NCBI GenBank assembly: GCA_050950825.1
Contig: JBMNIH010000004.1
Span: 256,001 to 320,000 of the forward strand
Length of the DNA stretch: 64,000 nucleotides
Direction of reading: 5' to 3'
Source of the DNA: Clostridia bacterium
GTDB taxonomy: Bacteria; Bacillota; Clostridia; JAAYHZ01
Part shown: piece after piece, positions 8,728 through 12,431 of the stretch
Position numbering within the stretch: position 1 is the stretch's first letter
Layout: each line of letters starts with the position of its first letter
Position numbers and translations under genes: made by a program
The notes under the pieces: model-generated
Told to the model about the DNA's origin: nothing
What the model saw: only the letters and a program-made list of their open reading frames with translations
Databases searched by the model: none

Positions 8728-9351
8728 ATGGAATACGATTGCAGAAAGGAAATCGAAAGACTTCGAAAAGAAATCGAGGATTTGAAGGAGCGATTCGGCC
8801 GAATGGAGCGCATCTCATCGAAGGAACCGCTAAAAAAGCCTCATATTATGAGAAACGAGCAATCGAACCCGGAGTCGAACCGTATTATGGATTCTCTGTT
8901 GGAGATCAGTGAAAAAGAAAACCGTACGGGAAGCGTAACGTGCATGGGGGTTTTCCGGTCGAGCGGAAGGCAATCTCAATGGATTACGGAAAGCCGAAAT
9001 ACGGACGATTTGTTGGCTTTGATTGAAATCAAGTTGGCATCGGCGGTACTGCAGTGCATCGGCAACAGCGACCGCTTGAACTTGCTTCTTACGCTCTTGC
9101 GTACGCCTATGACCGTCGCTTCTTTGGTTGAAAAGTGCGGATTCAATACCACAGGACAAGCGTATCATCATCTCAAGCCGTTAATCGCGGCGGATTTGGT
9201 TTATGAGGTTGAACAAGGAGAAAGAGGCGTTTACGCCGTAAGACCTCATCGGGTGCAAGGTATCATCATGTTATTAGCCGGTATAGCGGATTTGACGGAT
9301 CCGAGATACTCCCGGGGAAATTGGATATCGGATGAAAGAGAAGATAAATAA
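8728..9351 (+). CDS. ArsR-like winged-helix transcriptional regulator
   Basis: RLNLLLTLL...TTGQAYHHLKPLIAADLV wHTH. Confidence 0.82.
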   Translation: MEYDCRKEIERLRKEIEDLKERFGRMERISSKEPLKKPHIMRNEQSNPESNRIMDSLLEISEKENRTGSVTCMGVFRSSGRQSQWITESRNTDDLLALIEIKLASAVLQCIGNSDRLNLLLTLLRTPMTVASLVEKCGFNTTGQAYHHLKPLIAADLVYEVEQGERGVYAVRPHRVQGIIMLLAGIADLTDPRYSRGNWISDEREDK

Positions 9352-9416
9352 ATTTTACCGAAATGACGATACGACAAACTTGTTAAAAAACGAATAAAAT
9401 CTTATGATATAATGAT

Positions 9417-9521
9417 TATGCGTTTTATCAATTCGCAACACAAAAAGAAACCACCACAATGTGAATGTGGCGGGTGTTGTAAACTAAAATATATTCGGAC
9501 AAGAGAATTGATAAACGCATA
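9417..9521 (+). repeat. Long imperfect hairpin abutting the mobile-element end
   Basis: TATGCGTTTTATCAATTC (9417-9434) pairs with GAATTGATAAACGCATA (9505-9521) with one extra T; inner stems 9435-9480. Confidence 0.8.
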
Positions 9522-9728
9522 TTGTACCAAACCGCGTAGGTTCTCATTTTCCCATGGGAATTTTAAAAGGTCAACATCGGTTTGATTCGAACATTTTAGG
9601 CTTAAAAGTACGTTAAAACGGTACTTCGCACCTTGAAAATCGAAGAAAAAGCGGAAAATCGCCTGAAAAAGAGCAAGCTACGCCCTCCCATAAAGGGTCG
9701 TTTTACACGATATTCAGTTGTCAAGAAT

Positions 9729-10886
9729 CTACGGTCCGGTACCGGTAGGCAATAAAGCCGGCTGCGCGTACAAAGAGCGAGGAACCAAAAGAAAAGATTG
9801 GCTTCCGCATTTCGGACAGCGGTCAAGAGGTTCAACTTTGCACTTGGGGAATTCTTGAATAACTCCCGTGGGTGCGGTTGCCTTCAGCAAATCTCTGCAT
9901 AATTCCAAACGCTCTTCTCTTCCTCGGTTGGCAAGCAATCCGTAATGTCGAATTTTCATGAATCCTTTGGGCAACACATGGAGGAGAAAACGGCGTACGA
10001 ACTCGTCTTCGGAAAGCTGCATGATCTTGATTTTGTTGTGATCTTTGTAATCTTTCCAGTGGAAACGCACCGTCTGCGTGTCGGGATTATGAGAAACGAT
10101 TCGGCTGTCCGAGATCGCCACTTTGTGAGTATATCGGCCGAGATACCGTATAACGGCGGAAGCGTCTTTAAACGGTTTCTTGCAATAGCATACCCAATCC
10201 TTGGAGTACAGTAAGTCCAGAAATTGTTGCCTTTTTTGAACGGTATCCAAACCTTCCGTCAATTGAAGGGTGTTATTAACAAAGAATGTTTTCAATTCCT
10301 CGAGGAACTTTCCCCGGAAAACGATGCTGATCGCTTTAAGAGGAAGGAAAAAGGAATCTTTGGAAACAACGAATCGTTTGCGATCGCTGGACAATCCGCC
10401 GCCCGTTACGATACAATGCAAATGGGGATGGAACTGAATGTTTCGCCCCCATGTATGTAAGACGGCGATAAAGCCGGGTTGCGCCCCGAGAAATTTTTCG
10501 TTCTCCGAGAGAGTCAAAACGGTTTGACTAGCGGCACGAAAGAGCAGATTGAACATATTGTCGGGGTTTGCAAGAAACAAGGGATTGAGTTCGGCAGGCA
10601 CGGTGAAAACCACGTGGAAATAGGGTATCGGGAGCGTGTTGGCGACTTGCTTTTCAACCCATTTTCTTTGGTTGGACCCTTGACAAACGGGACAATGTCG
10701 ATTTCGGCAGGAATTGAAATGTGCCTCGGTGTAACCGCAATCGTCACATCGTTGGACGAATCCTCCCATTTCGGGAGTGCGGCACTTACAGATTGCGTCA
10801 ATGACTTTTGTTTTTTGGGGAGAATAGCTTTGGGACGGCAATCTCTCTTTAAAGGACTGAAAGATCTTTTGAATTTTAGAGGACAT
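9729..10886 (-). CDS. IS91-family rolling-circle (HUH/Y2) transposase
   Basis: Zn-binding CxxC + SCRNRHCPVC; HPHLHC HUH motif; YLGRY (YxxxY); FLLHVLPKGF.KIRHYG. Confidence 0.95.
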   Translation of the reverse strand: MSSKIQKIFQSFKERLPSQSYSPQKTKVIDAICKCRTPEMGGFVQRCDDCGYTEAHFNSCRNRHCPVCQGSNQRKWVEKQVANTLPIPYFHVVFTVPAELNPLFLANPDNMFNLLFRAASQTVLTLSENEKFLGAQPGFIAVLHTWGRNIQFHPHLHCIVTGGGLSSDRKRFVVSKDSFFLPLKAISIVFRGKFLEELKTFFVNNTLQLTEGLDTVQKRQQFLDLLYSKDWVCYCKKPFKDASAVIRYLGRYTHKVAISDSRIVSHNPDTQTVRFHWKDYKDHNKIKIMQLSEDEFVRRFLLHVLPKGFMKIRHYGLLANRGREERLELCRDLLKATAPTGVIQEFPKCKVEPLDRCPKCGSQSFLLVPRSLYAQPALLPTGTGP

Positions 10887-11751
10887 TAAAATCACCTCCG
10901 AAACCGTCAGCCGGACTCTTCACCCCTTGAAGATGCTTCCGTGCCAAGTGCGTGTAACGTTTGGTGGTCCAAATGCTTGCATGACCGAGTAGGGATTGTA
11001 TGACTTCGATATCTTGTCCGGATTCGTAAAGGTGTGTCGCAAAGCTATGGCGTAAAGAATGAATGCACGCATTTTTGCGGATTCCGGCTTTTATTACGGC
11101 ATCATGAAACGCCTTTTGGATTCCCTGCGCTGCCATAGGCTTACCGGAAGAGGCACCCGGGAAAAGATAAGGACCTTCAGGTCTGTAAAGCCTCCAATAA
11201 TCTCGAAGAAGCGTCAAATACTCCGGAGACAGTATCGTATAGCGATCTTTGTTGTTTTTACTTTTTCGAACGGCGATCTGCATATTCTCACTGTCAATAT
11301 CTTTGATTTTTAGATTCAAGGCTTCTCCGAGACGAAGACCTGCAGAATAACAAAGGTATAGAATGACTCTGTATCGAGGGTTTCTTATGTAGGAAAATAT
11401 TCGTTTGATTTCATTTTGCGACAATACGGCAGGCAGTACAGTTTCCTTACGAACACGAGGAAGTAAAGACTCATCAAAAGTTTTTTGCAATCCTACACGG
11501 AAGAAAAGACGTATGGCTGCTCTGACTTGGTTGATGTAATCCGCACTCAAGGATCGCTTAACAAGACCGTGCAAATACAAAAGTACATCTTGCTGAGAGA
11601 TTTGACAGGGATGTTTCTGAACCGTTTGATAAAACTTAATAATTTGTCGCTCATAAAGATAGATTGTTCTTTGAGAATAACGGCAGGTCTCAAGAACAAA
11701 CTTAACATTGTGGAGCGCTTGATCAAAATCGACGGATAAATTTGTTGACAT
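10876..11751 (-). CDS. Tyrosine recombinase (phage integrase/XerD family)
   Basis: Complete catalytic set: GLR, K(NNKDR), HSLRH, LGH, Y(TH); overlaps tnp start by 11 bp. Confidence 0.95.
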   Translation of the reverse strand: MSTNLSVDFDQALHNVKFVLETCRYSQRTIYLYERQIIKFYQTVQKHPCQISQQDVLLYLHGLVKRSLSADYINQVRAAIRLFFRVGLQKTFDESLLPRVRKETVLPAVLSQNEIKRIFSYIRNPRYRVILYLCYSAGLRLGEALNLKIKDIDSENMQIAVRKSKNNKDRYTILSPEYLTLLRDYWRLYRPEGPYLFPGASSGKPMAAQGIQKAFHDAVIKAGIRKNACIHSLRHSFATHLYESGQDIEVIQSLLGHASIWTTKRYTHLARKHLQGVKSPADGFGGDFNVL

Positions 11752-11939
11752 AACAATACCACCTTTCAAAATCAAATTAATGGGAGCTATTATATACGAT
11801 TTTGAAGGTGATAGGAATTAAATATAAAGGTTAGGACCCGAAAAGGGTAAATACTGTTGAGCTACCGCGCAGCGGTTTGGTACAATTATCGGTTATACGG
11901 GGTTTCTTTAGATACCCTAAATATCATTTGAGGTTTTTT

Positions 11940-12431
11940 ATGGCCAAAGGAAAAATAACGTGTTCCTTTCAATTGAACGAAAAGGATTTTTTAAATTTTA
12001 ATTATGCAGTCAATCGAAGACCGCTACGCTTTATGCTGTTGTATGGTTTTATTTTGATGGCATTGGTTATCGGTTTTGAAGCCGTAAAAGAAAAAATAAA
12101 CGTCATTCCTATCATGATCGGCTTGTTCATTATTATCCTCTCCTTCGGCGTTACCCTTTTCAATATGGTTCGAAAAAGCAGAGAAGGTTGGGCGGTAAAT
12201 ACGGCTTTTCATGACCCGATGACGTTTGCGTTTGACGACAAAGGATTTTCTTGCACGACCCCTAAGCATTCGGCTCGTGTGACTTGGCAAAAAGTCACTA
12301 AAGTCGTATGGGGGAAAAAGATTATTGTTATCATGACGGGAGGCACCCAAGCCTATTTAATACCGACACGGATAGAAAACATAAACGAGGTAAAAAAAGT
12401 GATATGGGAGTACGTATCACATAAAAAATAA
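11940..12431 (+). CDS. YcxB-like membrane protein
   Basis: Two TM helices, then FDDKGF...VTWQKV..V...YLIP pattern; GAGG RBS. Confidence 0.7.
   Translation: MAKGKITCSFQLNEKDFLNFNYAVNRRPLRFMLLYGFILMALVIGFEAVKEKINVIPIMIGLFIIILSFGVTLFNMVRKSREGWAVNTAFHDPMTFAFDDKGFSCTTPKHSARVTWQKVTKVVWGKKIIVIMTGGTQAYLIPTRIENINEVKKVIWEYVSHKK

Follow-up and report, generated by a model that had tools for sequence, protein, structure and literature searches.

Why should an insertion sequence of the IS91 family, whose members lack terminal inverted repeats, appear to be framed by a perfect one? The question is raised by a locus in a 64,000-nucleotide (nt) stretch of contig JBMNIH010000004.1 of a Clostridia bacterium (the whole stretch is called the window below), where the genes of an IS91-family transposase (tnp) and of a tyrosine recombinase (int), both intact in their domains and catalytic residues and overlapping by 11 nt, are enclosed by the 15-nt sequence GCGGTTTGGTACAAT, found at 9521-9535 on the minus strand and at 11872-11886 on the plus strand. 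At up to two mismatches this 15-mer has two matches in the window compared to 0.14 expected, and none of 100 shuffles reached two. An earlier note on this DNA had extended the repeat to two 25-nt arms (9511-9535 and 11872-11896, 84% or 21/25 complementary) and taken them for the two ends of the element, in the form of dif-like sites. The sequence facts of that note are correct, including an oriIS-like motif, TTAAAATTCCCAT, inside the end downstream of tnp (9554-9566, minus strand), while the anatomy assigned to them is wrong: one arm of the 15-bp repeat is the ter end of the element and the other is located 107 nt inside its ori end, and the repeat is not a pair of termini. The locus is an active insertion sequence of the IS91 family and belongs to a subgroup in which a gene for a Xer/IntI-like tyrosine recombinase, encoded by the element itself, precedes that of the Y2 HUH transposase.

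The boundaries were obtained by comparison of copies. The genome of the window harbors four copies with 99.9-100% identity, of which one is that of the window, another is on contig 10 and the remaining two follow each other exactly head to tail on contig 7. When these were aligned together with their flanks, the common sequence began right after the TATAAT at 9408-9413, so that the element proper begins with GATTATGCG at 9414 and runs to ...GCGGTTTGGTACAAT at 11886, a length of 2473 bp with both genes on the minus strand. As target and ter end share AAT, the cut may be located as much as 3 nt more to the left. Metagenome contig L053 provided a fifth right junction, which falls on the same base, and metagenome contig L052, which consists of element sequence only, contains the same ter-ori joint as the tandem of contig 7; the tandem junction is thus identical in two independent contigs. 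The two tandem copies differ by 2 nt and therefore do not represent an assembly duplicate. In three runs the Logan unitigs are interrupted at two places, 9407-9410 and 11886, and five more left flanks and two more right flanks could be read from the loose ends. Word depth in public runs is higher over the element than over its flanks, a measure that does not amount to a copy number.

The true termini, GATTATGCG... and ...GGTACAAT, are not inverted repeats of each other, as is typical of IS91 ends. The left arm of the 15-bp repeat is internal by 107 nt in all four copies of the genome and also in the relative L115, which was found through a phylum sample in a genome of another class of the same phylum. 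No target-site duplication was observed, since the flanks share no common repeat at the three fully flanked sites of the window's genome and in L115; on this point the earlier note was upheld by the flanks from copies, unitigs and metagenomes alike. Insertion took place in one orientation only relative to the target motif. A search for the empty site in genomes of the same genus and family gave no DNA match for the left flank and a match of only 68% identity for the right flank, and yielded no readable empty site.

The surroundings of the internal arm form a distinct structure. On the plus strand the left end is composed, in this order, of GATT, a hairpin arm, a 70-nt loop, the second hairpin arm and, immediately adjoining that arm, the inverted ter copy (Table 1). 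In a tandem the ter end of one copy directly precedes the GATT of the next, and the whole stretch folds as one continuous stem of about 31 bp, which consists of 15 bp between the ter end and the internal copy, a 4-nt one-sided bulge that coincides with the joint, a run of 8 bp, a 1-nt bulge formed by an extra T, and at least 8 further bp. The free energy (dG) of the natural tandem junction is -36.6 kcal/mol, compared to -17.3 +/- 3.0 for shuffles (z -6.5, with 0/200 shuffles as good), and the complementary strand shows a z of -6.7. For the left end alone, without its ter partner, the dG is -22.4 (z -2.8). Rfam gave no match in 9200-12100 at E <= 0.1. The conserved motif TTAAAATTCCCATGGGAAAA, just inside the internal copy, is probably the ori recognition motif of the transposase.

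Table 1. Features of the element and of its immediate surroundings in the window.
Feature	Position	Strand	Remarks
Whole element	9414..11886	-	Four copies in the window's genome (G000), L052, L053, unitig breaks, relative L115
Target motif TGATATAAT (resembles an extended -10 box), retained immediately 5' of the element	9405..9413	+	10 distinct left flanks
GATT, first 4 nt of the ori end	9414..9417	+	One-sided bulge at the joint in tandem-junction folds
Terminal ori hairpin	9418..9520	+	Arms 9418-9434 and 9505-9520, the outer arm with an additional T
Terminator-like stem-loop for the int-tnp operon, inside the 70-nt hairpin loop	9451-9473	-	
Internal inverted copy of the ter end (taken for the left end in the earlier note)	9521..9535	-	Adjoins the inner hairpin arm
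Conserved motif TTAAAATTCCCATGGGAAAA just inside the internal copy	9547..9566	-	13-nt identical block 9547-9559 in L115
IS91-family Y2 HUH transposase gene (tnp)	9729..10886	-	ATG 10886 behind GGAGGTG; longest open frame to 10895
Xer/IntI-like tyrosine recombinase gene (int)	10876..11751	-	ATG 11751, 291 aa; longest open frame to 11775
ter end	11857..11886	+	Palindrome ACCGCgcaGCGGT at 11864-11876; last 9 nt TGGTACAAT imitate the target
Flanking DNA outside the element (right "spacer + TTAT" of the earlier note)	11887..11896	+	Differs in every other copy

Ten distinct left flanks were available, four from copies in the window's genome, five from unitigs and one from L115. All ten end in TATAAT, and in nine of them TG stands two bases before it, as TGA or TGG; the exception, a solo remnant described below, has TTA. 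The first bases of the seven right flanks are T, C, A, G, T, G and A, and no consensus emerges from these flanks. The resulting motif, TGRTATAAT, occurs nine times in the window, within 6502-57566, against 1.4 expected (seven of the nine on the plus strand) and 245 times in the genome, where 119 of the sites are preceded by TA or TG, and it looks like the extended -10 consensus of the host. The start of a co-oriented open reading frame (ORF) lies within 330 nt of 70% of the 242 unoccupied sites, compared to 24% of random positions, and 54-322 nt downstream in 5/5 right flanks. A preference for active promoters beyond the motif itself is unsupported, since the same 70% of unoccupied sites also precede such an ORF. 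In the window, once the element is removed, the target box stands 54 nt before the ATG of a YcxB-like gene. The TATGA that is shared before TATAAT was considered as a co-mobilised flank and rejected: 46/245 genomic TGRTATAAT sites read TATGATATAAT, and TATGA is therefore a local promoter consensus. By eye, one target is located in the 5' part of an ORF on the opposite strand and one in the end of an IS3-like gene.

The ter end imitates this target: its last nine bases, TGGTACAAT, depart from the consensus at a single position. Any ter end already in place is therefore a target in its own right, which accounts for the head-to-tail tandems. That the target abuts the ori end and resembles the ter end agrees with IS91, although it comprises 9 nt here and not 4. 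A promoter scan of the last 30 nt identified the -35-like hexamer TTGAGC, 18 nt and TG-TACAAT, finishing on the last base of the element; the downstream gene would thus again face a -10-like box at the same distance. We infer that this look-alike may work as a promoter.

A solo left end of 63 nt (L005), identical to window 9407-9469, is present on contig 4 of the same genome at 567529-567591. It is still found behind TTATATAAT, ends in the hairpin loop and adjoins a 404-aa ORF that was read by eye from the sequence as an IS256/Mutator-type transposase, and it gives the impression of a copy that a different insertion sequence has truncated. The idea that it ends at the hairpin apex as a product of processing was rejected on account of this adjoining IS256-family gene. 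In addition, a single contig (run X15 record 1, corresponding to window 9403-12090) presents the right flank of the window with a different left flank before 9403, suggesting a rearranged or recombined version of the window locus in another sample.

Both genes could be assigned to their families. The transposase comprises the N-terminal zinc-binding domain and the Y2 HUH domain that characterize IS91 transposases (PF14319, Zn_Tnp_IS91, E 9.5e-30; PF04986, Y2_Tnp, E 2.1e-60) and scores 423 bits with the equivalog NF033538, for which the cut-off is 125. Its HUH motif reads HPHLH at residue 156, and the two tyrosines of the YxxxY motif stand in YLGRY at residue 251. The recombinase matches the Pfam families Phage_integrase and SAM_4 and has the R, HxxR, H and Y residues; its 21 closest homologs (60-99% identity) are mostly 287-292 aa in length, and the int stop at 10876-10878 lies within the start of tnp.

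The anatomy of the left end is retained in relatives. L115 shares 70% identity with the element at the DNA level, 73% in Int and 74% in Tnp, and has TGGTATAAT in front of it. Nowhere in the alignment is an identical run longer than in the ter end (30 nt), and the non-coding blocks of at least 12 identical nt within 9414-9728 are the inner hairpin arm (13 nt, 9507-9519), the internal ter copy (15 nt, 9520-9534) and the TTCCCATGGG motif (13 nt). One pair of the stem has changed on both sides (AATTC/GAATT to AATCC/GGATT) with pairing kept. L115 also has the joint bulge and the single extra base, in both cases with different letters, and its loop diverges while the stems are kept; the modelled L115 junction has a dG of -34.9 against -13.9 +/- 2.7. 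In a more distant family (L037/L039, Tnp about 43% identical), the ends of which could be placed to a few bases with the help of fragments and of a second species, a different sequence shows the same order of ori motif, inverted ter copy, long hairpin and terminus, and the modelled junctions fold with -49 and -57 against about -17 (-16 and -17). Internal ter copies were found at the equivalent position in L037, L039, L041 and L089, and motifs resembling TTGAA(T/A)TTCCCAT occur at the same place in L037, L039, L041 and a Clostridium element.

A blind test looked for inverted matches that pair the 350 nt lying upstream of the first gene with the 550 nt that follow tnp, and compared them with shuffles. 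The natural sequence beat every shuffle in 5/13 distinct int-bearing loci (the window, L037, L039, L041 and L089) and in 0/4 int-less loci of the IS91 family. The int-less locus L088, a truncated transposase fragment, was left out of this test, as was L054. Scans with Tnp gave one distant relative (46% identity) among the genomes, and two identical contigs and six distant loci in the metagenomes. The 15-mer also matched 36 loci in viral contigs, which were attributed to chance: none of them encodes a relative of tnp, and one shows a weak recombinase match of 69 residues.

A second set of elements was available from plasmids of Clostridium estertheticum, where PGAP annotated a "xerA site-specific tyrosine recombinase/integron integrase" next to an "IS91 family transposase". 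With the window element they share the gene pair and its overlap, a terminal hairpin, an internal copy resembling ter, and the ori motif, and their ter end, GCGGTTTAGTTCAA, is homologous to GCGGTTTGGTACAA of the window element. On the other hand, Int is only 40% and Tnp 48% identical, the internal copy is weaker (10/14), and the Clostridium element lands inside palindromic targets (GTCGTGAAA ... TTTCACGAC) while the window element lands behind -10 boxes. The ratio of nonsynonymous to synonymous substitution rates among the Clostridium subgroups is 0.22-0.25 for int and 0.09 for tnp, and both genes are therefore maintained under purifying selection. In the plasmids of C. estertheticum and C. 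tagluense (L106, L108-L114) the flanks read ...AATGTCGTGAAA, 6-7 variable nt, the element and TTTCACGACATT..., from which it follows that, within a repeated hairpin, the insertion point of the Clostridium element is between the 3' arm and the loop. Several of these plasmids carry gene-less or internally deleted derivatives.

How the element might move can be proposed from this anatomy. TnpA would nick the plus strand of the window (the bottom strand) behind the -10 box, and rolling-circle replication would displace this strand in the direction from ori to ter. The emerging ter end may then pair with the internal 15-mer and be brought beside the 5' end, so that a single-stranded circle could be closed; the ter-ori tandem junction is compatible with such a rolling-circle product. 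The folded junction would become the integration site, cut at the joint and joined behind TGRTATAAT in the target, and this last step would most likely be done or assisted by the recombinase acting on folded DNA. Folded sites with unpaired bases at the crossover are used by XerCD on CTX phage DNA and by IntI on attC. A role of the Xer/IntI-like recombinase on the folded junction, which we consider probable, is favoured because int is conserved with the element, the module outside the ori motif did not turn up in the few int-less loci tested, and enzymes of the Xer/IntI type use folded sites. With regard to IS91 itself, a recent study describes that no target duplication is formed, that the tetranucleotide next to oriIS resembles the terIS cleavage site, and that a bottom-strand single-stranded circle inserts whereas a double-stranded circle does not (PMC13181058); the strand that has the joint in the bulged arm here is the window plus strand, which fits the bottom strand used by IS91. 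The best explanation of the whole, an IS91 element that forms a single-stranded DNA circle and integrates through the folded junction with the probable help of its recombinase, has in our judgement about an even chance of being right. The general idea of a hybrid between an HUH enzyme and a recombinase, already put forward in the earlier note, thus survives with the folded junction as its structural basis; the twin dif-like end sites that were to support it do not. A fuller version, in which a self-contained "single-strand integrating" element has its circle made by the HUH enzyme, its joint folded by a 15-nt guide, its integration behind -10 boxes carried out by its own recombinase, and a look-alike promoter restored by the ter end, is offered tentatively, as less likely than not.

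Several observations weigh against integration of the folded junction by the recombinase. In Logan contigs from four runs neither ter-ori joints, as expected from circles, nor empty sites were found, although such contigs drop rare forms. The recombinase remains below the curated cut-offs for XerA (archaeal; 206.5 against 220) and for integron integrase (188 against 265); TIGR02249 matches it in two stretches and PRK15417 scores 120 against 435. It appears to lack the extra segment specific to IntI, as its residues 193-213 stand where integron-integrase profiles have about 75 positions, and it is this segment of IntI that reads extrahelical bases. Among the int-bearing loci 8/13 gave no significant inverted match, three of these having less than 200 nt upstream, and as L037 and L039 are related, the independent positives of the blind test amount to four families. 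The G021 element, the ends of which are known, showed no ter/internal repeat in that test. Covariation is thin, amounting to a compensatory pair each in L115 and in the Clostridium subgroups, and both arms of the 15-mer are conserved in their letters as well as in pairing, which equally fits one protein that binds double-stranded DNA at two places. Finally, a target that resembles the ter end is exactly what a mechanism based on TnpA alone predicts, so that none of these observations requires the recombinase.

That simpler mechanism would have the element move like IS91 and IS1294, with the internal copy and the hairpin serving the HUH transposase in ori recognition, ter capture and re-cleavage of the junction, and with the recombinase as an accessory that resolves tandems or multimers, regulates, or is carried as a passenger without being needed for integration. 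The resemblance of target and ter end, the missing duplication and a conservation restricted to the 5' side of the cut follow the IS91 rule as given in the study cited above, where the single-stranded circle of IS91 also inserts with TnpA alone (PMC13181058). In the same direction, L037, L041, L089 and the Clostridium elements have ends that terminate in GTTC and are homologous to the ter end GCGGTTTGGTAC, and GTTC is listed in that study as the terIS cleavage tetranucleotide of IS801 and IS1294 (PMC13181058). TnpA alone explains the target rule as well as the recombinase model does. It leaves aside an int gene that is intact, overlaps tnp and is under purifying selection, and a module of about 130 nt that, together with the ter/internal repeat, was found in int-bearing loci only, in a sample that is small (the 5/13 and 0/4 given above). 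We regard it as a serious but rather unlikely account.

The hairpin may alternatively have a housekeeping function, as a single-strand origin that primes the complementary strand and as the operon terminator, and not serve in recombination, in which case the ter/internal repeat would merely extend the structure. Single-strand origins prime complementary-strand synthesis in rolling-circle plasmids and filamentous phages, and such a function would agree with the terminator-like stem-loop inside the loop, with a -10-like sequence with TG held in the stem, and with the loop of L115 diverging between preserved stems. However, a priming site has no need of a joint placed exactly at an in-stem bulge, as it is in three families, and the most conserved bases are those at the cut; we therefore consider this explanation improbable. 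More doubtful still is the proposal of the earlier note, by which two inverted 25-nt Xer/dif-like sites in double-stranded DNA would be recombined by the recombinase for excision and integration. The repeat is real and far beyond chance, and the internal site, taken as a duplex, does have two arms that end in ACAA and TTAT around a 7-bp spacer. However, the left site is not terminal, the outer half of the right site (11887-11896) is flank, and TTAT is present in one of the five copies with a known right flank (the window, but not L002, L004, L053 or L115). The spacing from ACAA to TTAT at the internal site is 8 in L115, the closest relative, the duplex junction has 12 bp between the arms, and insertion occurs at many sites and not at one att or dif site. 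It is hardly credible that the element works in this way.

The preferred reading, with a folded junction acted upon by the recombinase, can be set beside several known systems. With IS91, IS801 and IS1294 the element shares the transposase family, the absence of terminal inverted repeats and of a duplication, subterminal palindromes, an ori located downstream of tnp that abuts a target resembling ter, and the expectation of a single-stranded circle (PMC13181058). Differences from IS91 are the tyrosine recombinase in place of orf121 or of no second gene, the 9-nt TGRTATAAT in place of a target tetranucleotide, the extra module between the ori motif and the terminus with its inverted ter copy and long hairpin, and a ter end that doubles as an outward promoter look-alike.

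In integrons, the folded single-stranded attC of the cassettes is recombined by IntI. In its general shape the folded junction consists of a stem, an unpaired spacer, a second stem with one extra base and a loop, and here, too, the site would exist only as a folded single strand with the joint at the stem edge beside unpaired bases, a single further extrahelical base and a variable loop; the integron-integrase model is the second-best one for the recombinase, and the IntI4 structure 2a3v turned up for it. Unlike in integrons, the stem letters differ from the attC consensus, the element has its own HUH enzyme and its targets are -10 boxes. No attI, Pc or cassette array was seen in the flanks examined, and since the recombinase does not reach the family score and apparently lacks the extra segment, the element is not an integron.

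In CTX-type phages, an HUH enzyme makes a single-stranded circle in which two inverted sites fold, and the host XerCD integrate it at dif. The proposed single-stranded DNA circle, the inverted sites that fold to a duplex-like bulged site and the Xer-type recombinase are points of likeness; here, however, the recombinase is encoded by the element, which is an insertion sequence and not a phage. At least ten different insertion sites and a recombinase of its own also separate it from integrative mobile elements exploiting the host dif/XerCD system (IMEX), and in view of its many targets it is not dif-dependent. In the IS200/IS605 family (Y1 HUH), internal "guide" bases next to a hairpin pair with cleavage and target sequences. 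The window element resembles it in having an internal stretch at the foot of a subterminal hairpin that is complementary to its end and nearly complementary to its target, as well as in the proposed single-stranded DNA substrate, but its enzyme is Y2 and not Y1, 15 nt are complementary and not 4, and a pairing of guide and target is hypothetical here.

New in these results are how exactly the folded junction is built, the use of a -10 box as target and the resemblance of the ter end to a promoter, while the two-gene subgroup was already known to annotators; ISfinder, too, lists IS91 members with an extra integrase ORF. Our literature search gave no description of the ends, the target or the mechanism of the int-carrying subgroup, and the paper on ISwz1 deals, in the portion available, only with resistance islands (PMC11322121). 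Resistance and catabolic genes are mobilized by elements of the IS91 family and by the related ISCR elements, and the functional intermediate of IS91 itself was settled only recently (PMC13181058). A sizeable part of the family carries a tyrosine recombinase with an undescribed role, a question that the exact ends, target and junction now frame. By inserting exactly between a gene and its -10 box and providing a replacement promoter at its end, the element would limit its own damage. If true, the single-strand integrating reading would link IS91, integron cassettes and CTX-type phages and would explain the extra recombinase.

On contig 1 of G021 (L049, L050), the 2.5-kb int and tnp element has ends reading TAACGTTTAGTG... 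to ...TTTGTTANGTG, with N variable. These elements occur as pairs 3.4-4 kb apart with a solo ter-end fragment of 171-175 nt nearby, and a ter-like GACGGTTCAGTACAAC follows the ori motif, for which a matching upstream end was not found.

The recombinase lineage is not confined to IS91 elements, as the closest homologs in a class sample (37-45% identity, open frames mostly of 290-380 aa) have no IS91 tnp in their 1.5-kb flanks (L022, L023, L025-L032, L034, L036 and L038). A shorter tyrosine recombinase, 46% identical over residues 69-290, is located directly upstream of tet(X3) on a plasmid of Acinetobacter indicus (L107), where an IS91-like ISVsa3 transposase gene has been annotated 2.7 kb downstream.

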